Assembly (NCBI GenBank): GCA_016840165.1 | Contig: JAEOSU010000104.1 | Location: 1-11,057, forward strand | DNA: 11,057 bases | Direction: 5' to 3' | Origin: Promethearchaeota archaeon | GTDB taxonomy: Archaea > Asgardarchaeota > Lokiarchaeia > Sigyniarchaeales > SOKP01 | Made by a program: the position numbers and the translations under genes | Part shown: in pieces, positions 93 through 11,057 of the stretch | How the letters are laid out: every line of letters starts with the position of its first letter | Numbering within the stretch: the first letter of the stretch is position 1 | Notes under the pieces: generated by a model | Seen by the model: the letters and a program-made list of their open reading frames with translations, nothing else | Told to the model about the DNA's origin: nothing | Databases searched by the model: none

Positions 93-1544
93 ATGTTTAA
101 AATGGAGTTAAACAAGCTTTTCAAACCGAAATCAATGGCTGTTGTAGGCATTTCAAAAAAAAATCCATTAAGCCCTGGTAGAATAGTGATGCTAAAAAAT
201 GAATTTGAAATGCAAGTAAAAGTCTATGGGATTTATCCTACTGGAGGTGAGATTGAGGGAATTCAATTATATGAACGATTGGATAAATTACCTGAAATTC
301 CAGATCTTTTAGTTATTGCAGTTGGTCCTGATGATACCTTAGATTATATTCAACAATGTGCAGACCTAAATATCCCCTCAGCAGTTATCATAGGAGGGGG
401 TTTTGCGGAGATTGGGATAAAAGGGAAAAAAAGGCAAGATAAGCTGGAAAAGATTGCTTTTGAAAACAATATTGCTGTTCTTGGTCCTAATTGCCTTGGA
501 GTTTATGCCCCTCCCTTAGTAGATACAATCTTTTTACCTACTGAGAGAATTACCAAACCACCAAAGGGTTCAGTCGCACTTATTAGTCAAAGTGGCGGGG
601 TTCTCGTTGATCAATTTTTTGTAAAGTTCAAAGAACGAAACATTGGAGTATCCACAGCAGTTTCAATTGGTAACCGGGCAGTTGTTGATGAGGTTATGCT
701 CCTTGAATATTTTAGTAAAGTAGACCCAGAGACTTCAAATATTGCATTTTATTTGGAAGGTTTCAAGGAAGGTCGCGCACGAGAATTTTTAAAATTCGCC
801 CGAGAATCCGAGGACACCGTAATAATGTTTTTTGGCGGAAAGACTCGTGAAGGAAAAGTTGCCACCCTCTCCCATACAGCGAGTTTAGCAGGTAATTACA
901 AAATACAATATTCCGCATTACGACAAAACCTTGTAATTCAACCCCATTCGGAACGGGAGTTGTTAACTAGTTTAAAAGTATTTGATGTTTTATCTCATCG
1001 TAAAAATCCATTTGGAGATAATGTAGTCACCTACGGAGATGTGGTCATTCTTTCTGTTTCGGGGGGTCATGGTGTCATTGCTGCCGATATGCTTAAAAGT
1101 TATGGTTTAAATCGCGTGGATTTTACTAAAGAAGAAAAAGCGAAAATGAAAAAATTGATGAATCCTGTAGCGAGAGAGATTGCGTCTTTCAATAATCCTA
1201 TTGATTTAACTGGCTCCGTATTGGACACTGATATCGAAGATATGATACGTTATTTATCTGATATTGATCGAATAGAATGCATCATCTTGCTCTTGCTTCC
1301 ATATCCTCCCAATATTTCCTTTCAGATTGGAAGGAGAATTGCTAATGTGGTTGCCTCAAAAAAGAAGCCAGTAGTCTGTTTTGTGCCTTATGTCTCAAAA
1401 TATGAGATGATCATTGAATCATTAGAGTTAGCATATATCCCTGTATTTCATTCCATAAAAGAGACGGTTCAAGCGGTCTCAGCACTTAAACATCGTACAA
1501 GGGTAGATAATGTTAAAAAAGGGAATATATTTTGGGAGAAATGA
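93..1544 (+). CDS. acdA: Acyl-CoA synthetase (NDP-forming, ACD) alpha subunit / CoA-binding protein
   Basis: 483-aa ORF. N-terminal LFKPKSMAVVG CoA-binding Rossmann start, IPDLLVIAV, GGGFAE, LGPNCLG, VALISQSGG, VSIGN, FYLEG, the phospho-His motif SHTASLAG (H261, 873-875), second ligase domain SGGHGVIAAD and NNPIDLTG. No ATP-grasp (beta) domain. Start could be ATG 93 or ATG 102. Confidence 0.9.
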   Translation: MFKMELNKLFKPKSMAVVGISKKNPLSPGRIVMLKNEFEMQVKVYGIYPTGGEIEGIQLYERLDKLPEIPDLLVIAVGPDDTLDYIQQCADLNIPSAVIIGGGFAEIGIKGKKRQDKLEKIAFENNIAVLGPNCLGVYAPPLVDTIFLPTERITKPPKGSVALISQSGGVLVDQFFVKFKERNIGVSTAVSIGNRAVVDEVMLLEYFSKVDPETSNIAFYLEGFKEGRAREFLKFARESEDTVIMFFGGKTREGKVATLSHTASLAGNYKIQYSALRQNLVIQPHSERELLTSLKVFDVLSHRKNPFGDNVVTYGDVVILSVSGGHGVIAADMLKSYGLNRVDFTKEEKAKMKKLMNPVAREIASFNNPIDLTGSVLDTDIEDMIRYLSDIDRIECIILLLLPYPPNISFQIGRRIANVVASKKKPVVCFVPYVSKYEMIIESLELAYIPVFHSIKETVQAVSALKHRTRVDNVKKGNIFWEK

Positions 1545-1548
1545 TCTT

Positions 1549-1572
1549 TTAGTCTAGCAAAGACTAATTTTT
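1549..1572 (+). terminator. Putative stem-loop plus T-tract terminator (or operator) after acdA
   Basis: TTAGTCT (1549-1555), loop AGCAA, AGACTAA (1561-1567) form a perfect 7-bp inverted repeat followed by TTTTT (1568-1572). It starts 4 nt after the acdA stop codon. Confidence 0.45.
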
Positions 1573-1591
1573 AAAAATTAACAAATCACCT

Positions 1592-1624
1592 TTTATAAAA
1601 ATTATTATTACTATAACCAAGGAG
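1592..1624 (+). promoter_or_regulatory. TATA-like box and Shine-Dalgarno site upstream of the beta-hydroxyacid dehydrogenase
   Basis: TTTATAAA at 1592-1599 and AAGGAG at 1619-1624 just upstream of ATG 1630/1633. The same TTTATAAA octamer occurs at 27-34 upstream of acdA. Confidence 0.45.
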
Positions 1625-1629
1625 TTTAT

Positions 1630-2511
1630 ATGATGGAAGAAAAAATTGGATGGATTGGGACTGGTGTTATGGGAAAATCAATGTGTGCTCATTTATTAAA
1701 TGCAGGATATAAAATTTTCGTTTATAACCGAACGAAAGCAAAAGCTGAAGACTTAATCAATAATGGAGCTGTGTGGTGTTCAAATCCAAAGGAAGTAGCA
1801 GAAAAGAGCGATATTATATTTACTATTGTAGGATTTCCTAAAGATGTGGAAGAAGTATATCTTGGAGATAATGGAGTCCTAAAAGAAGCTCAACAAGGAT
1901 CTATTATCGTAGATATGACGACGTCCGAACCATCATTGGCGCAACATATATTTGAGCAAGCAAAACTCTTGGGAATCTCATCAATAGATGCCCCCGTATC
2001 AGGTGGGGATGTTGGTGCAAAGCAAGGAACTTTAGCTATTATGGCAGGTGGCGATAAAGAAACTTATGAAAAAGTTTTACCGCTCTTTCAGCTAATGGGA
2101 AAAAATATTGCTTACATGGGTAAAGCAGGTGCTGGACAACATACTAAGATGAGTAACCAGATTTTAATTGCATCAACAATGATAGGTGTAGTAGAGTCAC
2201 TACTATATGCTTATAAAGCGGGGAATGATTTACAAGAAGTAATTAATGTTATTGGAAAGGGAGCTGCTGGATGCTGGTCAATTAATAACTTAGGACCGAG
2301 AATCGTGAACAAAAATTTCGATCCGGGTTTCTTTATTAAACATTTTATCAAGGATATGGGAATCGCACTCAAAGAAGCAAAAGCAATGAGTCTCTCTTTA
2401 CCGGGATTAGCTCTGGCATACCAATTCTATATTGCGGCAGAAGCTTTAGGTTTAGAGAATCTTGGAACTCATGGGTTATATAAAGTTTTCGCAAAAATGA
2501 ATGCTGTTTAA
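1630..2511 (+). CDS. NAD(P)-dependent beta-hydroxyacid dehydrogenase (3-hydroxyisobutyrate dehydrogenase / tartronate semialdehyde reductase family)
   Basis: GWIGTGVMG dinucleotide-binding motif, VYNRTKAKA, VDMTTSEP, DAPVSGGDVGA substrate motif, catalytic-Lys motif GAGQHTKMSNQ, and C-terminal FDPGFFIKHFIKDMGIAL. AAGGAG ribosome-binding site upstream. Confidence 0.93.
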   Translation: MMEEKIGWIGTGVMGKSMCAHLLNAGYKIFVYNRTKAKAEDLINNGAVWCSNPKEVAEKSDIIFTIVGFPKDVEEVYLGDNGVLKEAQQGSIIVDMTTSEPSLAQHIFEQAKLLGISSIDAPVSGGDVGAKQGTLAIMAGGDKETYEKVLPLFQLMGKNIAYMGKAGAGQHTKMSNQILIASTMIGVVESLLYAYKAGNDLQEVINVIGKGAAGCWSINNLGPRIVNKNFDPGFFIKHFIKDMGIALKEAKAMSLSLPGLALAYQFYIAAEALGLENLGTHGLYKVFAKMNAV

Positions 2512-2534
2512 ACTACTTCTTTTCCTAAAAATAA

Positions 2535-3350
2535 TTAGGTTATATCGATTATACTATCAATTTTTTGTATAGATTTTTTAATAAATTCTCTATCTTCAAT
2601 TTTTATCTTGATTGCGTGTTGAGGACAAATATCAACACAGCGCCCACAAGCTCTGCATTCTTCACTAATATGAGCCATATTGTTGACAAGTGTTATTGCA
2701 TCAACAAAACATATTCCCTGCATACAGGTTCCACATCCTATACAATCCTCAGTTACATATACGTTTACTCCTTGCATCTTGTGAACTTTTTTACCTATCT
2801 TTGGATTTAATAGTGGTGAGATTCGCCAGAGGCAACAGCAAGGATCGCAATTACATATACTAAGTAGCTTATTTCCGGGATTTACTCCTAACCACTGTTT
2901 ATCTAGTCGATTCCTCCCAATCATATGAACTAACCCCGCTTCACTGCACTTTCTAATATGTTCTAAAGCTTCTTCTTTCGAAACAAGTCGACCTAATTCT
3001 GGATTAATGTAAAGAACCGCTTCCCCGAGAAAAAGACATCCTAAATCTATTGGATAATTCTGACATTTCATAGAAGCTCTACAAATGCAGAAATTCATAA
3101 TAAAATGATAGTTTGCCTTTTCTATGAAATATTCTAGTACCTGAGAGGGAAGAACCAGATCTTCTGGTCCGGGAACCTCTTGATTTATCTGAATTACACT
3201 ATCCTTAGTTAAGTAGATAATCTCGTCCCCCTCAAAGAGTAATAAATCAAAAAATTTTCCTAAAATGGGAATTCTAGTCAATTTCGCGATATTTTTAACA
3301 CCGGGAAATGCCTTTTTTAATAATTTCACAAACCAAAGGGGGCGAGCCAT
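2535..3350 (-). CDS. Cys-rich iron-sulfur protein with a C-terminal 2[4Fe-4S] ferredoxin domain
   Basis: C-terminal CIGCGTCMQGIC and CRACGRCVDICP ferredoxin motifs. The central domain carries CICR-x4-C-x8-C, GLVH and ICNCDPCCC. 18 Cys in 271 aa. Confidence 0.85.
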   Translation of the reverse strand: MARPLWFVKLLKKAFPGVKNIAKLTRIPILGKFFDLLLFEGDEIIYLTKDSVIQINQEVPGPEDLVLPSQVLEYFIEKANYHFIMNFCICRASMKCQNYPIDLGCLFLGEAVLYINPELGRLVSKEEALEHIRKCSEAGLVHMIGRNRLDKQWLGVNPGNKLLSICNCDPCCCLWRISPLLNPKIGKKVHKMQGVNVYVTEDCIGCGTCMQGICFVDAITLVNNMAHISEECRACGRCVDICPQHAIKIKIEDREFIKKSIQKIDSIIDIT

Positions 3351-3406
3351 GATAATTTTAAAACCTTCTATTGATTAAATAATTTTACTTTCAAACATGA
3401 TTCTTT

Positions 3407-4273
3407 TTATTCTTTCATGAGTTTATATACTCTGTTTATCTCGGGGATTATGATCTGAAATGATTTGTTCATATTCTTTAAATTTACCAAATCATCTGTT
3501 GATAGTGTATCATGAGAAAACATGCCAAAATGATGTACGATTAAATTCTTTATATTTGCTTCTTTGCATAAATCTAATGCTTCTTCTACTGTAAAGTTTC
3601 TAGCGAATTTTTTTTCTTTCCCCCGAATACTTTGTCCATTAATGGGTAATAATGCAATGTCTACTCCGATTTTTCTAAGTTTTTCAATTAAACCCTTATA
3701 GGGGACACATCCTCCGGAATGATAAATATTAACCCCATCAATATGTAATATATAACCTAAATAGGAATGTTCCCACCTTTCATTGATTTTGAATGATTCA
3801 TGAGCGGATGGAATAGCAGTAACATCAACTCTAGTATCAAGATTGATTGATTGATCAGCATTTATCGGTAACAATTGGCTCTTATTTATCCCATTTACAA
3901 TTGCTTGTTCAATTTCCGCAGCTGGAATAATGAATCTACATTCTGGAAAATTTTGGGAAAATACGGATAAAGTAAGAGGGTCCATATGATCCGAATGGGA
4001 ATGAGTAGAAAAAACAAAATCAACATTATTGAACTCCTTTGGTAAGATCGGAATCTCCATTAGTCTTTTATACGAAAATTCAATTCCATTATATTCTTTC
4101 GCGAGAGAATCAGATAAATAGGGATCAATTACATAGATTTTTCTATCAAATTTGATAATAAATCCTGCCTGTCCAATCCAAGCGATATCGATTCCTTCAG
4201 AGGAAATTTCCTCAGAATTTACAAATTTCTTTAAGGAACTAATAGTTAGAGTATCAATTCTAATACTATTCAC
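3407..4273 (-). CDS. Metallo-beta-lactamase-fold hydrolase, UlaG (L-ascorbate-6-phosphate lactonase)-like
   Basis: GTG start. WIGQAGF, VIDPYLS, THSHSDH (HxHxDH, H91-H96), PSAH, IYHSGG (canonically YHSGD), LLPING, VHHFGMF. Confidence 0.85.
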   Translation of the reverse strand: MNSIRIDTLTISSLKKFVNSEEISSEGIDIAWIGQAGFIIKFDRKIYVIDPYLSDSLAKEYNGIEFSYKRLMEIPILPKEFNNVDFVFSTHSHSDHMDPLTLSVFSQNFPECRFIIPAAEIEQAIVNGINKSQLLPINADQSINLDTRVDVTAIPSAHESFKINERWEHSYLGYILHIDGVNIYHSGGCVPYKGLIEKLRKIGVDIALLPINGQSIRGKEKKFARNFTVEEALDLCKEANIKNLIVHHFGMFSHDTLSTDDLVNLKNMNKSFQIIIPEINRVYKLMKE

Positions 4274-4374
4274 TTTATTTTCTATTGAGGTTAATTTGAA
4301 TTATAAAAGAATACCAATTTAATAGCTTTATAGTATTTAATTTAAATTAATATAGAATTTTAAATAATAATAAT

Positions 4375-5601
4375 GTGATAAGATTGGATGATCATGTTAA
4401 TTTTGAGGATTTAAATGTCGAATTAGGTTTCTCATGCATGCCCGACAGGTTGCACTATTTTAGTAAGGAAGAAAATGAATTTCGCATGGAATTACGCCAA
4501 TGGTGTAAAAATAATATAGGCCCTGTTGCTGAAAAGATAGATCGTGAGCGAAATAAGGAGTTAGCAGTCGAAACCTTAAAAAAAATGCCCTATCTCAATA
4601 TTATCATTCCAGAGGAGGTGGGTGGATTAGGAAAGGGTTTATTATATCGTACCATTCTTGGGGAAGAATTAACGGCATATAATTATGCTTTAGCAGGCAT
4701 CTTTGGAGCCTCATCTTGCTTGTTTGCTGGTCCGGTCATAGAATTTGGAACTTTAGAGCAAAAAAAGAAATTTCTTTCTGGGATTGCAGATGGAACAAAA
4801 ATCGGGGCTATTGGTATTACCGAGCCCACAGGGGGAAGTGATGCTATTGGAGGGATGCGCCTACGAGCAAAGAAAGATGGTGATTACTATGTACTGAATG
4901 GCCAAAAATGCTATATCACTAATGGTAGTGTAGCAGATTATATTTGTCTTTATGCAATCACAAATGATCAGGTAAGACCCCATCAAGGTATGACCGCATT
5001 CATTTTTGAAACTGATACTCCTGGATTTGAAGTCATAAAGGATTATAAACATATGGGCCGTCGGGGTATGCCGAATTCAAGATTGAAATTTAATGATTGT
5101 AAAGTTCCAGCAGAAAATGTATTACATCAAGAAAACCAAGGTTTAGATGTACTTCTATTCGGTCTTGATGGGGAAAGGACCTTTACCGCCTCTCAATATT
5201 TAGGTTTAGGAAGAAGTGCGTTTGAAGTCGCATATCGTTACTCTCATAAGCGTGAACAATTTAGAAAAACCTTATTTTCCTTTGAAGGAATTTCATTTAA
5301 ATTAAGCGAAATGTTTATGTCTCTTGAGCTAAATAGAATGGCAGTAACTCAGATTGCAAGGATGTTAGATGAAGGTCATAATGTTCGGGCTTCCGTAGCA
5401 GCCATTAAAGCGAGATTATCTGATGAAACTGTAAAAATAACACAAGATGCCATCCAAGTCGTGGGAGGTCTAGGCTACTCTGAAGAATATCCTTTAGAAC
5501 GCTATTATAGGGATGCGAAAATCGGGCAAATATCAGCAGGAACTTCAGAAATAATGAGGTATTTAATGGCGCGAGAAATGACACGAATGTGGGGGAAGTA
5601 A
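4375..5601 (+). CDS. Acyl-CoA dehydrogenase, isovaleryl-CoA dehydrogenase-type active-site arrangement
   Basis: GTG start (alternative ATG 4438). ITEPTGGSD, LNGQKCYITNG, REQF, AIQVVGGLGYSEEYPLERYYRDAKIGQISAGTSEIMR. Glu in GLDGER (E267) and Ala at the MCAD Glu376-equivalent site (ISAGT, A388). Confidence 0.93.
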   Translation: MIRLDDHVNFEDLNVELGFSCMPDRLHYFSKEENEFRMELRQWCKNNIGPVAEKIDRERNKELAVETLKKMPYLNIIIPEEVGGLGKGLLYRTILGEELTAYNYALAGIFGASSCLFAGPVIEFGTLEQKKKFLSGIADGTKIGAIGITEPTGGSDAIGGMRLRAKKDGDYYVLNGQKCYITNGSVADYICLYAITNDQVRPHQGMTAFIFETDTPGFEVIKDYKHMGRRGMPNSRLKFNDCKVPAENVLHQENQGLDVLLFGLDGERTFTASQYLGLGRSAFEVAYRYSHKREQFRKTLFSFEGISFKLSEMFMSLELNRMAVTQIARMLDEGHNVRASVAAIKARLSDETVKITQDAIQVVGGLGYSEEYPLERYYRDAKIGQISAGTSEIMRYLMAREMTRMWGK

Positions 5602-5609
5602 AGGGGGTG
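5602..5609 (+). promoter_or_regulatory. Shine-Dalgarno-like site between the acyl-CoA dehydrogenase and the crotonase
   Basis: AGGGGGTG within the 13-nt spacer between stop 5601 and ATG 5615, which suggests co-transcription. Confidence 0.5.
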
Positions 5610-5614
5610 TAATT

Positions 5615-6406
5615 ATGGCACATAAATTAGAGGTAACGATTGATAATAAGATTGCAATCATCACATTAACAGATCCTGAGAATTATAATCCTTTAAACCA
5701 AGAAACTGCAGTTGAATTGTTGAATGCGTTAGTCCATCTAAAAGATCAAGAGGAAATTCGGTGTGTATTAATAACTGGTTCCGGGAAAGCTTTTTCTGCA
5801 GGAGGAGATGTGAAAAAGTTTAAAAAAAGCATAGAGGATGGTACTCCTGGAAAATTAATGGACGATTTAACTAAAGATCTTTATCAAATAGCACATGAAC
5901 TACGATTGTATCCTAAACCAGTAATTGCAGCCGTAAATGGATGGGCTGTAGGAGCTGGAATGAATCTTGCATTATCATGTGATTTTATTATAGCTTCAGA
6001 GCAAGCAAAGTTTCGACAGTCATTCAGCAATCTTGCTCTTATTCCAGGATTTGCCGGGTCAATTTTATTGAGTCGACAGCTTACATGGCAACAAGCAACG
6101 GAGATGGCGTTTTTTGGTGAGACCTATACCGCTCAACAGATGAAAAATCTTGGTTTTGTGAATGAAATAGTTGAGTCTAGTAACTTAAAGGAGAGTGCTC
6201 TTGAATGGGCTCAACGTTTAGCTAATGGTCCAACTCTGACTTATGCTCGTACTAAAAAGCTCTTTTATGATGCTCTTAGTACTTCATTAGATAAACATCT
6301 CGAAGATGAGAGGCAGATGCAAATCAAGTCCGCAGAAACAGAAGATTATAAAATTGGGGTAAATGCAATTCTTTCAAAAAGTAAACCCGAGTTTATTGGG
6401 AAATGA
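5615..6406 (+). CDS. Enoyl-CoA hydratase/isomerase (crotonase) superfamily protein, PaaG-like
   Basis: ITLTDPENYNPL, LITGSGKAFSAGGD (oxyanion hole 1), PKPVIAAVNGWAVGAGMNLALSCD (oxyanion hole 2), AKFRQSFSNLALIP, LANGPT, and C-terminal TEDYKIGV...KPEFIGK. Confidence 0.92.
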   Translation: MAHKLEVTIDNKIAIITLTDPENYNPLNQETAVELLNALVHLKDQEEIRCVLITGSGKAFSAGGDVKKFKKSIEDGTPGKLMDDLTKDLYQIAHELRLYPKPVIAAVNGWAVGAGMNLALSCDFIIASEQAKFRQSFSNLALIPGFAGSILLSRQLTWQQATEMAFFGETYTAQQMKNLGFVNEIVESSNLKESALEWAQRLANGPTLTYARTKKLFYDALSTSLDKHLEDERQMQIKSAETEDYKIGVNAILSKSKPEFIGK

Positions 6407-6417
6407 ATTAATTATTT

Positions 6418-8298
6418 TTATTCATATTTTAATTCTTGTAAACGATTTCTGAGTTCCTCTGGAGCGATTTTAGGCGTTCTATCAAACGTTAAAAGACCAT
6501 TTATTTCTTGAAACTGATCATAAAGCTGTGTATAACAAAATCCTTGAATCCAATCTCTTCTTTCAATGAAATTATGGATCAAATCGTCAAGATATTCTAA
6601 AAATTCCTTACTAGAATTTACTAAACCCACTCCACGATACCTCTTCATAATATGATAATAATCAAAGGCAACTCCACCTATTTCACTATAAATGATGGGC
6701 TCATTTTCATATTTAAAATTCCTTAGGTATGTACTTGGAAAATTTGGAGCTACATATTCTCGTTCTATTTCCTCTTTAAAAGTCTTAGGAAGATGTTTGC
6801 AATCTGCATAAAAATGCTTGGTACAAATATGAGTTTGAGTATGCCACCATCCATCATTATCAATAATTAATCGCGAAGAATCAATTGATCCTACCAAATA
6901 AAAAAGAGATAGTATGAAATCTACTTTGTCTGGAAACTTATCTGCTAAGAAAACACCCCAACCCTCGTTTAATATTGTCCATACAATTATTGAAGGATGG
7001 TTAAAATCTCGCTCCATCATCTCCATATATTGATCAATGAATCTTTTTTGCGAGATATTAGAAAAATCGAAACTACTCCCTAATTCACTCCATACTAAAA
7101 GTCCCTCTTTATCACACCAATAGAGAAATCTCGGATCAAAAGCCTTTTGGTGAGCTCGTAATCCATTAAATCCAAATTGTTTGATATATCGTATATCCAA
7201 TTTAAATGCTTCATCAGAAGGTGCTGTATATAAACCACCTGGCCAATATCCCTGCACAAGTATAAGTTTTTGATATATTGGTTCATTATTCAACAAAATC
7301 CTTCCATTACTATCAATTGCAATTTTTCTCATGCCGAAATATGACTCCACTTCATCATAGATCTTTTTATTAACTTTATCGACAATTTTTAAGCGAAGAT
7401 CATATAAATTGGGTGTGCTGGGGCTCCATAATACTAATTTATTTTTAGGAATTTTTAAAATAAACTTAAATCTATTTGGATTATCATAAAAATCTAACTC
7501 AATACCCGCATTTTGTATTCTCTCTTTATTTAATTCCTTTACTTTTAATTTCTTTTTAGGATATCCAAGAAAAATCAAAGGAATATTAACTTCTGAAACC
7601 AATTCGGAATTTAAATGAACAATCGCGTTTAAAGTCAAATTTTCCGTACCAAATCCCGGTATCTGGCATTTAATCAAGATTTCAGATGAATCAAGGTCAG
7701 GATAGATCATTAATTTTTTGAGGTAGAATTCAGCATTAACCGCCTCAATCCAAACTGTTTGCCATATTCCAGTAATATTTGGGTAAAATATACTTTTCCA
7801 TTTTTTCTTCCAGAATTGTTTTCCTCGTGGAATTTCTAAATCATCATAGGGATCTTCAACGAAAATGATTAAGGTATTTTTCTTTTGAATAAATGAGGTA
7901 ATATCAAAAGAAAATCCTATATATCCTCCCTCATGCGAACCTATATACGAATTATTCAGATAAACTCTACAGGCATAATCAACTGCTCCAAAATGGATGA
8001 TATTATGTTTATCTTTAAAAGAATCTGGAATATTGAATTGTTTTTTATACCAAACATATCTGTGTGGAGAGTAATCAGAAATTCCACTTAATTCGGATTG
8101 AAAACAAAAAGGCACAATTATTTTTTTATCAATAATTTTGGAATTGCTCTCTTTATACCATTCTTCCTTGAGCCCCTCATTGTTGTCATCGAAAGCGAAG
8201 TTCCATTCTCCATTCAAATTAATCCAATTATTTTTTCTCACAAATTGAGGTCTTGGATACTCATGTCTAGGTAATTTATTCTCTTGCTCACTTTTCAT
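6418..8298 (-). CDS. Glycoside hydrolase family 2 (beta-galactosidase/beta-glucuronidase-like), probably cytosolic
   Basis: EYPRPQFVR, WINLNGEWNFAFD, HFGAVDY, HEGGY, GIWQTVWIE, WSPSTPNLYDL, YFGMRKI, DFNHPSIIVWTILNEGWG (acid/base E445), PIIYSEIGG (putative nucleophile E539), GFCYTQLYDQFQEINGLLTFDR. No hydrophobic signal peptide. Confidence 0.93.
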   Translation of the reverse strand: MKSEQENKLPRHEYPRPQFVRKNNWINLNGEWNFAFDDNNEGLKEEWYKESNSKIIDKKIIVPFCFQSELSGISDYSPHRYVWYKKQFNIPDSFKDKHNIIHFGAVDYACRVYLNNSYIGSHEGGYIGFSFDITSFIQKKNTLIIFVEDPYDDLEIPRGKQFWKKKWKSIFYPNITGIWQTVWIEAVNAEFYLKKLMIYPDLDSSEILIKCQIPGFGTENLTLNAIVHLNSELVSEVNIPLIFLGYPKKKLKVKELNKERIQNAGIELDFYDNPNRFKFILKIPKNKLVLWSPSTPNLYDLRLKIVDKVNKKIYDEVESYFGMRKIAIDSNGRILLNNEPIYQKLILVQGYWPGGLYTAPSDEAFKLDIRYIKQFGFNGLRAHQKAFDPRFLYWCDKEGLLVWSELGSSFDFSNISQKRFIDQYMEMMERDFNHPSIIVWTILNEGWGVFLADKFPDKVDFILSLFYLVGSIDSSRLIIDNDGWWHTQTHICTKHFYADCKHLPKTFKEEIEREYVAPNFPSTYLRNFKYENEPIIYSEIGGVAFDYYHIMKRYRGVGLVNSSKEFLEYLDDLIHNFIERRDWIQGFCYTQLYDQFQEINGLLTFDRTPKIAPEELRNRLQELKYE

Positions 8299-8370: not shown

Positions 8371-8429
8371 TAAAAGCTTAAAAATTAAATCTATTTTATC
8401 AGAATTTAGTGTATCTTTTGTGATGTTTG

Positions 8430-9392
8430 ATGAAGATTAATCTAGAATTATTAAAAGAATTAGAACGATCAATAAATACTTTTCATCCCGAGAAAGGAAG
8501 AATTCCTATCAAAATCTTAGGATTTGGAGAGATAAGTTTAGTATTTGAAATACTTAAAGACCCTGAGCATTTAGCATATAAACGTATCCCAATTTTTGAT
8601 AATGAAGATCAAGTGAAAAGACATATCTGGGCTTATAATGCATATTGTAAAATTTTAAATCAAGAAGTAGGATTATCACTTCCGGCGTATGATGTCACAT
8701 GGTTCAAGGATGATAATGGTACAATCCAATTTTATTGTGTTCAAGAAAAAATTGAGGCCAAATCTGTAGGAAATAAAGTAATTCATGAAATCTCTGATGA
8801 TGAGATCTATATTTTTGTTACTCTCATTCTTCGAGAAATGAAAAAGGTTTGGTCTTATAGCCATAATAACCCAAAAATTGATTTAGGACTTGATGGTCAA
8901 ATATCAAATTTCGCGATTATTAATTTCGATGTACAAAATCCAAAAGTCGATTTCAATACGAAACTCTATTATTTTGATACCAGCACTCCTATGGTGAGAA
9001 TAAATGGTGCTGAAGCTATGGAGGCAGTATTATTTTTAAAAAGTGCCCCCTCTTTTTTAAGATGGCTTCTCAAGGCGCTCTTTCTTGAAGAGACAGTAGG
9101 AAGATATTATGAGTGGAGGAAAGTAGCGATTGATTTGATCGCGAACTTTTATAAGGAACAAAAACCAGAGTTAATACCTAATTTAATTAAATTAGTAAAT
9201 AATTTTTTTGCTGAGGAGGCATCTGAATTTAATATTGTTCCAATAACTATTGATGAAGTAAAGAAATATTATAAAAGTGATAAGAATATGTGGGTAATTT
9301 TTCAAAGTTTCAGACGATTTGATCGATACCTAAAAACGAAAATTTTTAAGAAAAAATATGAATTTTACTTACCCGATAAAATAAAGCGCTAA
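8430..9392 (+). CDS. Uncharacterised DUF6206-like protein with protein-kinase-like motifs
   Basis: Open frame from TTG 8427 / ATG 8430. Motifs LGFGEISLVF, AYKRIP, YCVQE, GLDGQISNF, YFDTSTP. The DUF6206 assignment is from recalled family motifs, not from a database search. Confidence 0.7.
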   Translation: MKINLELLKELERSINTFHPEKGRIPIKILGFGEISLVFEILKDPEHLAYKRIPIFDNEDQVKRHIWAYNAYCKILNQEVGLSLPAYDVTWFKDDNGTIQFYCVQEKIEAKSVGNKVIHEISDDEIYIFVTLILREMKKVWSYSHNNPKIDLGLDGQISNFAIINFDVQNPKVDFNTKLYYFDTSTPMVRINGAEAMEAVLFLKSAPSFLRWLLKALFLEETVGRYYEWRKVAIDLIANFYKEQKPELIPNLIKLVNNFFAEEASEFNIVPITIDEVKKYYKSDKNMWVIFQSFRRFDRYLKTKIFKKKYEFYLPDKIKR

Positions 9393-9420: not shown

Positions 9421-10554
9421 ATGACAAAAAAACCCAAAGTATTTTTTACTTCAAATGTATTTACGTTGGATGAAATTGGTAGCAATAAAAGAATAAGTGA
9501 AGATCTAAGAAATACTATAAAAAACTTATGGCATCAATTAAAGCAAATTGTTGATATTGAAATTTATAATGGAAGATTTCCAGAAACATCTGAGATCCAA
9601 GCATATATTAAAGAAACAGATCCTATTATCTTAGGATGCCACCTTAGCCACCCAATTCCAGCAAAAATAATACAGTCTTCGAACCTCATTGCGGTTTGTA
9701 CTGCAACTGTGGGATATAACCATATTCAAATACCAAATGAAAATAATGTGCTTATTACTCACACGCCTGGAGTATTACATGAAGCCGTTGCCGATTATAC
9801 AATCGCACTGATAATGAGCAATCTAAGAAACTTAATAGATCTCCATAATTATGTATGGGCTGGTAATTGGAATCCTTCAGAAAAATGGGATATGGATCAA
9901 AACTTATCAAACTCTCTTAGAAATCAAGTTTTAGGAATTATTGGTTTAGGGGAAATTGGATCAGAAATAGCAAAAAGATTGCGTAAATACAAAATAAAGA
10001 TTATATACTACGATATTCAACGAAGAATAAATCTAGAAAATCAACTTCCTAATTTAGAATATTTTGACAATTTAGAAGCTCTCTTTAGAGAAGCAGATAT
10101 TATTAGTCTTCATGTACCCCTAAATGAAAAAACTGAAAATTTTATTGATAGAAATCTACTAAAATTAATGAAGCATAACTCTTTATTGATAAACACTGCT
10201 AGAGGTAAAGTTTTAAATCTCCAAGATTTTTTAAATCTATTAGAGAAAGGAGAAATTTTTGTTAATTTTGCTCTTGATGTCTATCCTGAAGAACCAATTG
10301 ATAAAAATACCCTGAAACGAATTAAAGCTATAAAAAAATTGCAGCCTGGAATTAGAATTAATTTAATGCCCCATAACGCTTCTGCAGATGCTGATACAAG
10401 AGCAAAGATGGTAATATTATTCTTACAGGATATTATTAAATTAATTAAATCAAAAAATCTTGAAGATCTTAAGAGAGTCCATTTAATTCCAGAACAAAAA
10501 AACAAACTTCAAGAAGTAAATTGGCGTATAAAAAAATATTGGCTCCAACATTAA
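9421..10554 (+). CDS. D-isomer-specific 2-hydroxyacid dehydrogenase (glyoxylate/hydroxypyruvate reductase-like)
   Basis: TVGYNHI, THTPGVLHEAVADY, GIIGLGEIG Rossmann motif, YYD, DIISLHVPL, and the catalytic triad INTARG (Arg), ALDVYPEEP (Glu), MPHNASA (His). Confidence 0.92.
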   Translation: MTKKPKVFFTSNVFTLDEIGSNKRISEDLRNTIKNLWHQLKQIVDIEIYNGRFPETSEIQAYIKETDPIILGCHLSHPIPAKIIQSSNLIAVCTATVGYNHIQIPNENNVLITHTPGVLHEAVADYTIALIMSNLRNLIDLHNYVWAGNWNPSEKWDMDQNLSNSLRNQVLGIIGLGEIGSEIAKRLRKYKIKIIYYDIQRRINLENQLPNLEYFDNLEALFREADIISLHVPLNEKTENFIDRNLLKLMKHNSLLINTARGKVLNLQDFLNLLEKGEIFVNFALDVYPEEPIDKNTLKRIKAIKKLQPGIRINLMPHNASADADTRAKMVILFLQDIIKLIKSKNLEDLKRVHLIPEQKNKLQEVNWRIKKYWLQH

Positions 10555-10567
10555 AAGAGGTATTATT

Positions 10568-11057
10568 GTGATAAGAACTTTTATAGCTATAGAATTGAAA
10601 AATCAAGCGACTATCGAAAAAATAGTTAAATTTTCTCAGAGATTAAAGCAAAATCAAGAAAAGTTGAAGTTAGTTGAGCCCCAAAATTTACATTTTACAG
10701 TTAAATTCTTAGGAAATATTAGAGAAGATCTGGCTCCCCAAATCTATACACTCATAGAGGAAGATATTAACACCCTTTTGTTTAAAGGAGAAACTTTCAA
10801 TTATGTTTTAAAAGGTGTGGGGCAGTTTAATAGGTTTTCAGTAATTTGGATCAATCTTCTCGGGGATATAGCCTTTATACAAAATATTAAGAATGAACTG
10901 GAAGAAAAATTCAACCAAAATCTAGCTATTCCTAAAGATAAAAGACTAGAATTCAGACCCCATTTAACTATTGCTCGATTAAATAAAAAACGTATTAATT
11001 ATAAAACTTTTGATGTTTTTAAGAAATTAATAAATGAAAATAAAAATACAGAATTCG
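10568..11057 (+). CDS. thpR: RNA 2',3'-cyclic phosphodiesterase (2H phosphoesterase, LigT/ThpR), 3'-truncated by the window end
   Basis: Absent from the ORF track because there is no stop in the window. Manual translation from GTG 10568 (RBS GAGGT 10557-10561): MIRTFIAIELKNQ...KLVEPQNLHFTVKFLG...GVGQFNRFSVIW...DKRLEFRPHLTIARL... Both HxT motifs are present and the frame is open to 11057. Confidence 0.92.
   Translation, partial: MIRTFIAIELKNQATIEKIVKFSQRLKQNQEKLKLVEPQNLHFTVKFLGNIREDLAPQIYTLIEEDINTLLFKGETFNYVLKGVGQFNRFSVIWINLLGDIAFIQNIKNELEEKFNQNLAIPKDKRLEFRPHLTIARLNKKRINYKTFDVFKKLINENKNTEF

Follow-up and report, generated by a model that had tools for sequence, protein, structure and literature searches.

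Kinases of the aminoglycoside phosphotransferase (APH) type are known to act in pairs with class-III pyridoxal 5'-phosphate (PLP) enzymes that work as phospho-lyases. Such pairs are known for hydroxylysine, ethanolamine and 1-amino-2-propanol, and Veiga-da-Cunha 2012 is reportedly the source that describes them. Here we report that a gene of the DUF6206 family, found in a Promethearchaeota archaeon, encodes a protein with the protein-kinase-like (PKL) fold and belongs to a two-gene cassette with a class-III PLP enzyme of another lineage. The gene lies on the forward strand at 8430..9392 of contig JAEOSU010000104.1 (assembly GCA_016840165.1); the whole stretch analysed, 11,057 bp in length, is called the window below. 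The best overall explanation, to which we give a probability of roughly 55%, is that the DUF6206 protein is an active, atypical PKL phosphotransferase that acts on a small molecule and is partnered with a lyase-like PLP enzyme.

Comparison with described PKL enzymes

The APH-type kinase/class-III phospho-lyase pairs used for comparison were (S)-1-amino-2-propanol kinase (6ef6), hydroxylysine kinase with PHYKPL, and ethanolamine kinase with ETNPPL. Like the APH-type kinases, the DUF6206 protein has a bilobed PKL fold with a helical C-lobe (Z 11.3 to 6ef6, 216 residues aligned), a D-x4-N loop and a metal-binding Asp. Like the APH-type systems, its gene is paired with that of a class-III PLP enzyme in which the transaminase gateway residues are missing and His stands at the position of GabT R141, as in ETNPPL. 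Gene adjacency or fusion, and a partner without the gateway Glu, the gateway Arg and the distal Arg, are the marks of a kinase/class-III phospho-lyase pair, and the DUF6206 family shows both. Unlike the APH-type kinases, the DUF6206 protein has no sequence-detectable relation to them, no His of the Brenner motif and no conserved alphaC Glu. The class-III lineage of its partner is also another one, with putrescine and acetylornithine aminotransferases as its nearest relatives.

The lipopolysaccharide (LPS) kinases of the Kdo/WaaP group (PF06293; 6dfl) are the best non-self matches in the ESM Atlas, with TM scores of 0.55-0.56 by query and 0.66-0.67 by target. They resemble DUF6206 in their compact PKL domain and similar size, and WaaP is matched with Z 11.2. 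In contrast to them, the DUF6206 protein has neither a Pfam Kdo match nor an LPS-gene context, and its family occurs in archaea.

Bud32 and the RIO kinases share with DUF6206 a minimal PKL core without an activation loop (Bud32 8k20_B: Z 12.0, rmsd 3.9, 192 residues; RIO: Z 10.2-10.4). In hhalign alignments, which are not significant, DGQISN of DUF6206 is placed over DITTSN of Bud32, and YFD over FID. Unlike Bud32 and RIO, DUF6206 has about 120 extra C-terminal helical residues, which align only with small-molecule kinases, and no link to Kae1/KEOPS or ribosome genes. This genome carries its own Bud32 and two RIO genes elsewhere; when the DUF6206 profile was compared by hhalign with this Bud32 and with Rio1, the probabilities were 0.3% and 4.7%, neither of them significant.

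The DUF6206 gene and the fold of its product

The window protein matches Pfam DUF6206 (PF19709) over profile positions 2-271 of 271, at 74 bits (cut-off 30.4) and E = 1.5e-20. The preliminary description of this DNA, made from the letters alone, had called the gene DUF6206-like, and this assignment is confirmed. The open reading frame spans 8427-9392 on the forward strand if it is read from TTG 8427, which is one in-frame codon upstream of ATG 8430. All close homologues are 320 aa in length and begin with MK, so the true start is almost certainly ATG 8430. Therefore, the residue numbers of the preliminary description are the true numbers plus one; in its numbering, each residue that it named is found where it was placed (G32, G34, K52, GLSLP 82-86, FYCVQEKI 102-109, DGQISN 156-161 and LYYFD 180-184). 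Below, the true numbering from ATG 8430 is used.

The gene is present in a single copy in this genome. The named close matches of its product come from Promethearchaeota, Lokiarchaeota and Thorarchaeota, and the G+C content of the Asgard DNA is 33%. Searches against NCBIfam and PADLOC gave no match for the protein. Pfam homology, the lengths of the homologues, the AlphaFold2 model and fold matches restricted to PKL enzymes together identify 8430..9392 as the coding sequence of a 320-aa predicted PKL-fold kinase of atypical kind.

The AlphaFold2 model, built from an alignment of 84 sequences, has a pLDDT of 96.1 and a pTM of 0.92. Its elements follow the order beta1, Gly loop, beta2, beta3 (with K51), alphaC, beta4, beta5, hinge, alphaD, alphaE, catalytic loop, beta7, beta8, D183 and beta9, and then six helices that make the C-lobe helical. 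The bilobed PKL architecture is thus complete: a five-stranded N-lobe with alphaC, a hinge, and a C-lobe with the catalytic loop.

Structure searches returned kinases throughout. Foldseek against PDB gave at least 500 matches with E of about 1e-5 and TM scores of 0.3-0.44, all of them protein kinases. In the wide VIA-align search of 48,161 chain representatives, the top matches were exclusively PKL enzymes with Z of 10-12: Bud32 (12.0), amicoumacin kinase (11.8), an APH-like protein (11.4), aminopropanol kinase 6ef6 (11.3), Rv3168 (11.3) and WaaP (11.2), followed at 10-11 by APH(2''), NahK, MphE, LicA and RIO1/2; choline kinase was also matched. The structures that match the model over residues of about 4-320 are small-molecule kinases of the APH/choline-kinase type. 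Protein kinases, RIO and Bud32 align to it only as far as residue 265-290 or so. The ESM Atlas fold search found the own family at TM 0.94, then Kdo/WaaP at 0.55/0.67 and APH at 0.54. The neighbours in a protein language model all belong to PKL families, with lead-level scores of 0.87-0.88. These facts leave hardly any doubt that the DUF6206 protein has the PKL fold, as the preliminary description had read it from the order of the motifs.

Sequence searches gave a different picture of distance. Neither phmmer nor a profile search against PDB sequences found anything significant (best E 0.15 and 0.053; the N-lobe of MAPK3 at E 0.9). At E <= 0.01, Pfam gave no APH (PF01636), Pkinase (PF00069), RIO or Kdo match in the protein. 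The HRD, DFG and APE activation segment of eukaryotic-type protein kinases are absent, and the corresponding motifs read LDGQISN and YFDTSTP. Within the PKL superfamily, DUF6206 forms a new branch of atypical kind.

It could be considered that the protein is a protein kinase or a regulator, similar to Bud32 or RIO, which acts on the PLP enzyme or on another protein. Bud32 is the top VIA-align match (Z 12.0), RIO kinases reach 10.2-10.4, the Foldseek matches are protein kinases only, and the tight translational coupling and the fusion of the two genes described below would also suit an obligate complex. However, the protein lacks an activation segment and an APE motif, Pfam shows neither a Pkinase nor a RIO match, the full-length structural matches are small-molecule kinases, and both genes are kept in this genus though they are 6-13 kb apart. 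A role as protein kinase is therefore regarded as quite improbable.

Conservation of the catalytic motifs

A HMMER search of 1.84 billion representative sequences found 494 clusters at E <= 1e-3, 119 of them at E <= 1e-30. The window protein was aligned with 83 full-length representatives, which gives 84 sequences with identities of 24-63%. All the motifs given below are encoded on the forward strand.

The Gly-rich loop, G31-F-G33-E34-I-S36 (8520..8537), lies between beta1 and beta2 (strands 27-32 and 37-41 in the model); G33 is conserved at 100%, G31 at 88%, E34 at 92% and S36 at 88%. K51-R52 (8580..8585) is at the end of beta3 (strand 48-52), and K51, the predicted ATP-phosphate-binding lysine, is conserved at 100%, R52 at 97%. 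The end of beta5 and the hinge are represented by Y102-C-V-Q105 (8733..8744; strand 99-106), with Q105 at 100% and Y102 at 91%. The predicted catalytic loop is D155-G-Q157-I-S159-N160-F161 (8892..8912), where D155 and N160 are conserved at 98%, S159 at 96%, Q157 at 94% and an aromatic residue at 161 at 95%. The predicted metal-binding segment, equivalent to DFG, is D183-T-S-T-P187 (8976..8990), between strands 179-181 and 189-191 of the model; D183 is conserved at 100%, P187 at 98% and T186 at 86%.

G33, K51, Q105, D183 and P207 are invariant across the alignment. Residues conserved at 90% or more also include R52, W161 (Phe in the window protein) and, towards the C-terminus, several positions occupied by Tyr, Asp, Asn, Glu and Trp. 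The family consensus of the catalytic loop is [GA][LI]D[GA]Q[ILV]SNW, with D-x4-N spacing, and that of the metal site is Y-x-D-[TV]-[ST]-T-P. Judged from this alignment, the motif set is far beyond chance. The preliminary description had singled out four residues (K52, D156, N161 and D184 in its numbering), and these turned out to be conserved at 100%, 98%, 98% and 100%, respectively.

The Gly-rich loop with the beta3 Lys, and the D-x4-N loop with the metal-binding Asp, are thus present as in other PKL enzymes, and the alphaC Glu is not. Among the 84 sequences there is no conserved acidic residue in alphaC (helix 59-80); at position 61, which comes closest, 54% of them have Glu and 21% have Gln, as does the window protein. 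Two residues before D155 the family has Gly (G-L-D), where the His of HxD would be, so that it departs from the Brenner motif H-x-D-x4-N of the APH/choline kinase family. The caution of the preliminary description, which could see neither an alphaC Glu nor the His of HxD, therefore holds.

These deviations bear on whether the protein is a pseudokinase, or a PKL enzyme that carries out another reaction, for example AMPylation like SelO or an ATP-dependent ligation. The lack of the alphaC Glu and of the HxD His would fit this, as would the unusual near-invariant residues E34, R52 and Q157. On the other side, the base Asp, the Asn and the metal-binding Asp are kept at 98-100% across phyla, with the canonical spacing typical of phosphotransfer. 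We give this alternative very little weight, and the DUF6206 protein is very probably an active phosphotransferase.

Partnership with a class-III PLP enzyme

The neighbourhoods of DUF6206 genes were surveyed in the best 80 of at least 594 loci, from diverse bacteria and archaea; open reading frames were called and the neighbouring proteins were clustered. One cluster of proteins of about 426 aa is encoded directly upstream of DUF6206 on the same strand in 60 of the 80 loci, and directly downstream in 5, so that 65 are adjacent. The gaps between the two genes are mostly -7 to +30 nt, and the stop and start codons often overlap. With tblastn, the partner is found next to DUF6206 in 78 of the 80. 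It has the class-III aminotransferase fold (Aminotran_3, E 1e-78 to 1e-89) and reaches no equivalog cut-off in NCBIfam.

A natural fusion of the two was also found. Protein P0273, of 751 aa, contains DUF6206 at 67-313 and Aminotran_3 at 373-742 in a single open frame on its contig. The fusion locus (L118:1407-3662) is flanked by a gene for PAP2 lipid-phosphate phosphatase, which overlaps the fusion start, and by Peptidase_M28.

The cassette of DUF6206 and the PLP enzyme stands mostly alone. The sole other recurrent mate is a cytoplasmic Cys-Ntn hydrolase, seen in 22 of the 80 loci, with a weak Peptidase_C69 match and the N-terminus MCDT..GKNSDRE; it is co-operonic with the pair (e.g., L025:6958-8223 and L026:6954-8252). 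Three other loci have Peptidase_M28 and one has penicillin amidase. A complex prediction for the partner and the kinase of this genome, run without controls, scored 0.00 and weighs neither way on binding.

These facts indicate that DUF6206 is functionally tied to a dedicated, lyase-like class-III PLP enzyme. The preliminary description had also proposed a kinase for a small molecule, on the grounds of the metabolic neighbours in the window. A small molecule remains the better-supported kind of substrate, by virtue of the near-universal PLP partner; the neighbours on which that proposal was based are lineage-specific, as described below.

Residues of the partner and the direction of the reaction

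In order to compare the residues, 66 partners were aligned with the partner of this genome and with its ornithine-aminotransferase-like paralogue. In the partners, the PLP lysine (GKGLSGG) and the motif DEVQTG are both kept. Thr (ETIPATxG) takes the place of the gateway Glu (QGEAG). The gateway Arg (RxxPPL) is replaced by Gln, and by Ile in the partner of this genome. The Arg of FHGRT, which corresponds to GabT R141 and to R180 of ornithine aminotransferase, is replaced by His (GYHGHT). The paralogue in this genome keeps all three transaminase residues.

The gateway Glu, the gateway Arg and the distal Arg typify the alpha-ketoglutarate transaminases; the phospho-lyase ETNPPL has His in place of R141, and none of the three is present in the lyase PbfA (supplement, PMC8154272). 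The only class-III lyases documented are ETNPPL, its close relative and PbfA (PMC8154272). All three residues that handle the keto acid are replaced in the DUF6206 partner; it is therefore unlikely to be a conventional transaminase, and in these positions it resembles the class-III lyases. Since His stands at the distal-carboxylate position, the substrate would be one without a carboxylate.

The nearest solved relatives of the partner are putrescine aminotransferase (4uox, E 1.7e-61), PigE, and acetylornithine and ornithine aminotransferases. This opens an alternative in which the two steps run in the reverse, biosynthetic order. The PLP enzyme, a transaminase or aminomutase of unusual kind with no need for a keto-acid carboxylate, would first make or rearrange an amine, and DUF6206 would phosphorylate the product to a phospho-amine head group, a piece of a cofactor or an osmolyte. 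Class-III enzymes of the glutamate-1-semialdehyde aminomutase type do work without an external keto acid. The solved relatives act on terminal amines, the gene order is mostly PLP enzyme and then kinase, and the PAP2 lipid phosphatase flanks the fusion locus. Against the reverse order, the partner lacks all three carboxylate-handling residues like the known class-III lyases, the cassette is mostly alone without other biosynthetic genes, and the recurring amidohydrolase neighbour suggests catabolism. The reverse order thus appears unlikely.

The pair in Asgard genomes

Among 201 Asgard genomes, both genes are present in 36, DUF6206 only in 2, the partner only in 9, and neither in 154; these genomes are kin, so the counts are descriptive and not a statistical test. 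The partner is present in 36 of the 38 DUF6206-positive genomes, and one of the two copies of DUF6206 without a partner is cut by a contig end. The partner in this genome (G000:C20:108-1415) is recognised by 395 bits and 44% identity to the Thorarchaeota partner, and the next paralogue scores 169 bits. An in-frame TAA lies within the partner match in three Asgard copies (G132:C43:27424-28716, G125:C561:13601-14893 and G174:C16:18421-19710), which may reflect an error in sequencing, decay of the gene or a wrongly called boundary.

DUF6206 and the partner lie side by side in genus g4 as well as in families f2, f7 and f22. In g2 and in the genus of the window, the partner is 5-13 kb upstream of DUF6206 on the same strand; for the genus-mates of the window alone, the distance is 6-13 kb. 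In G147, the partner and DUF6206 are adjacent. In G144, the order is partner, ADP-forming acyl-CoA synthetase (ACD), Fe-S protein and DUF6206. In G104, whose kinase is 85% identical, it is partner-ACD-HIBADH-FeS-MBL-ACAD-ECH-GH2-DUF6206-2HADH-2H, which is colinear with the window. The synteny of these three genomes shows a stepwise insertion between the partner and the kinase.

Based on this order, contig C20, which carries the partner, probably adjoins the start of the window. C20 and the window start share no end sequence, and the adjacency is therefore based only on synteny with G104. C20 (locus L103) is 2,020 bp long; the partner is followed at 1422-1964 by a gene for a 180-aa PEMT/ICMT-like membrane methyltransferase. 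C20 ends in a poly-A tract and the window begins with AAAG, which fits an assembly break in AT-rich sequence.

Proposed function

We infer the following mechanism for the pair. K51 would hold the phosphates of ATP, D155 would be the catalytic base, and N160 and D183 would hold Mg2+. In the first step, the kinase would phosphorylate the hydroxyl of a vicinal amino alcohol, similar to ethanolamine or 1-amino-2-propanol. The amine may be released from an amide by the Cys-Ntn hydrolase where this is present (about a quarter of the operons). In the second step, the PLP partner would eliminate phosphate and ammonia to leave an aldehyde or a ketone. The conserved acidic and aromatic residues in the C-lobe of the kinase, with Y226, D235, N239, E243, Y280, Y281, D284 and W288 as the set considered, would suit an ammonium group.

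This proposal is made because of the analogy with the known APH-type pairs, and 1-amino-2-propanol kinase 6ef6 is among the top fold matches. That the protein is a small-molecule kinase coupled to the PLP partner is probable. That the two form an amino-alcohol kinase/phospho-lyase pair specifically is a tentative step further, with somewhat less than an even chance. The substrates that the preliminary description had listed for assay were sugars, sugar acids, glycerate and amino alcohols; the PLP partnership favours the last over the others. EutB, the B12-dependent ethanolamine ammonia-lyase, was not found in this genome, which is 99.7% complete; this is compatible, as weak evidence, with an alternative amino-alcohol route.

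Several points weigh against an active small-molecule kinase with a lyase-like partner. The likeness of DUF6206 to known kinases is visible in structure only, with no significant match at the sequence level, and the clustering of K51, D155, N160 and D183 in one cleft is predicted from the topology and the fold matches. Because the protein has neither the customary alphaC Glu nor the HxD His, its nucleotide-dependent chemistry may be impaired or different. As for the partner, its closest solved relatives by sequence are true transaminases and not known phospho-lyases, and its predicted lyase activity is based on three substituted residues. It is not adjacent to DUF6206 in the window but lies on another contig, and nine Asgard genomes carry it without DUF6206. 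The literature search found the term 'DUF6206' in no paper and no published biochemistry for members of the family. Literature searches on kinase/phospho-lyase pairs and on new PKL families likewise found nothing on it.

Neighbouring genes in the window

In G104 the order of genes is the same as in the window, and the window genes at 93..8298 are therefore the inserted block. Identified by Pfam and NCBIfam and by synteny with G104, G144 and G147, its seven genes separate the kinase from the PLP partner in this genus. They encode ADP-forming acyl-CoA synthetase alpha, a beta-hydroxyacid dehydrogenase, an Fe-S protein, an MBL hydrolase, an acyl-CoA dehydrogenase, a crotonase and GH2. Within 93-6406, the matches of the synthetase alpha include a 3-hydroxypropionate-CoA ligase model, the dehydrogenase is of the 3-hydroxyisobutyrate/tartronate-semialdehyde type, and the best match of the acyl-CoA dehydrogenase is acryloyl-CoA reductase; the crotonase is in the same part. 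It can be speculated that this part, which resembles a branch of propionyl- or isobutyryl-CoA oxidation, could process an acyl unit derived from the aldehyde.

The intergenic stretch of 130 nt between the DUF6206 gene and the divergent GH2 gene is very AT-rich and contains TATA-like runs. It fits an own promoter for the kinase gene, which is now separated from its partner.

Downstream, a gene of the D-2-hydroxyacid dehydrogenase family follows at 9421..10554 on the forward strand (2-Hacid_dh_C, E 1e-42), co-directional with DUF6206 and 28 nt after it. G104 has it too, and in L001, L002 and L117 no such gene lies between DUF6206 and the 2H gene; it is thus a genus-specific insertion. It is followed on the same strand at 10568..11056 by a gene for an RNA 2',3'-cyclic phosphodiesterase of the 2H/LigT family, cut by the end of the window (TIGR02258, 83 bits against a cut-off of 65.7).

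With the GH2 gene on one side and the 2-hydroxyacid dehydrogenase on the other, a kinase for a sugar, a sugar acid or glycerate could be considered, in line with the assay list of the preliminary description. PKL sugar kinases do exist (NahK 4ocj, Z 11.0; glucosamine kinase 6hwj, Z 9.6). These neighbours, however, are confined to this genus or family and do not recur in the 80 other loci, and among these no extra operon mate appears in more than 3 of 62 cases. Such a sugar or hydroxy-acid kinase is improbable to nearly the same degree as a protein kinase.

The 2H gene is conserved more widely. It lies downstream of DUF6206 in L001-L003, L116 and L117, as a conserved neighbour only within this Asgard family; as a recurrent neighbour it was not seen in the 80 other loci. 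Asgard relatives with 68-70% identical DUF6206 have the 2H phosphoesterase and then a HAD hydrolase downstream. In L001 (7008-8279), L002 (7062-8327) and L003, the 2H gene is followed by genes for the HAD hydrolase, DUF211, DUF2299 and a HIT protein, and this string is confined to the Asgard family. GH2, the 2-hydroxyacid dehydrogenase and the 2H phosphoesterase are thus lineage-specific neighbours, none of which recurs outside this family.

Such an arrangement brings to mind an end-healing kinase for RNA or nucleotides, working with the downstream 2H and HAD phosphatase genes like the kinase and cyclic phosphodiesterase modules of tRNA ligases. The 2H and HAD hydrolase genes after DUF6206 in L001-L003 would agree with it, as would the 2H gene that L116, L117 and the window have downstream. 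The association is missing from Thorarchaeota, Archaeoglobi and every bacterial locus, and from the sister genus g4, where DUF6206 of G147 is followed by a convergent gene; the PLP partnership is far broader. Because the kinase and 2H neighbourhood is confined to one Asgard family, RNA healing is ranked low and is held to be highly improbable.

Distribution and phylogeny of the family

A scan of species genomes, one genome per species, with a pattern from a 9-sequence subset found a DUF6206 relative in at least 594 of them. The carriers include Desulfobacterota, Chloroflexota, Calditrichota, KSB1, Nitrospirota, Leptospiraceae, Marinimicrobia, Actinomycetota, Archaeoglobi and Thorarchaeota. In a quick maximum-likelihood tree of 83 proteins, the window protein belongs to a clade of 12 Asgard rows that has good support (99). 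The Thorarchaeota make up a clade of their own close to Archaeoglobi, and the rows from archaea fall within the bacterial ones, at weak support (80). No tie to eukaryotic kinases was seen in this tree.

A subgroup of longer proteins (468-527 aa) has a common helical N-terminal domain of about 200 aa (P0150, P0165, P0169, P0176, P0177, P0184, P0192, P0204 and P0133). This domain has no Pfam match and gave no functional clue. In the locus of the long form P0133 (L021), the PLP partner is still upstream.

Implications

It can be speculated that DUF6206 and its partner constitute an unrecognised, B12-independent two-enzyme route that degrades ethanolamine, aminopropanol or a related amino alcohol, with both lineages having arisen independently of the APH/AGXT2L pairs. 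Such a route would be widespread in bacteria and archaea of anoxic sediments, including Asgard archaea, Archaeoglobi, Desulfobacterota and Chloroflexota, and in this genus the acyl-CoA genes would have been recruited to use the product. This fullest version is doubtful, and rather less likely to hold than the amino-alcohol pair as such.

The analysis provides a testable biochemical role for DUF6206, a family that counts 494 clusters at 50% identity and occurs in at least 594 species genomes, mostly from uncultured anaerobes. If the kinase/lyase reading is true, there would be an unrecognised route for the turnover of nitrogen and carbon from amino alcohols, the head groups of phospholipids, in anoxic sediments, and pairs of kinase and phospho-lyase would have been assembled convergently from different lineages. 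For annotation, the gene is best described together with its partner, which in fragmented assemblies may be on another contig. The kinase-fold DUF6206 protein of Asgard archaea is part of a metabolic cassette common to bacteria, and not a eukaryote-like signalling kinase.

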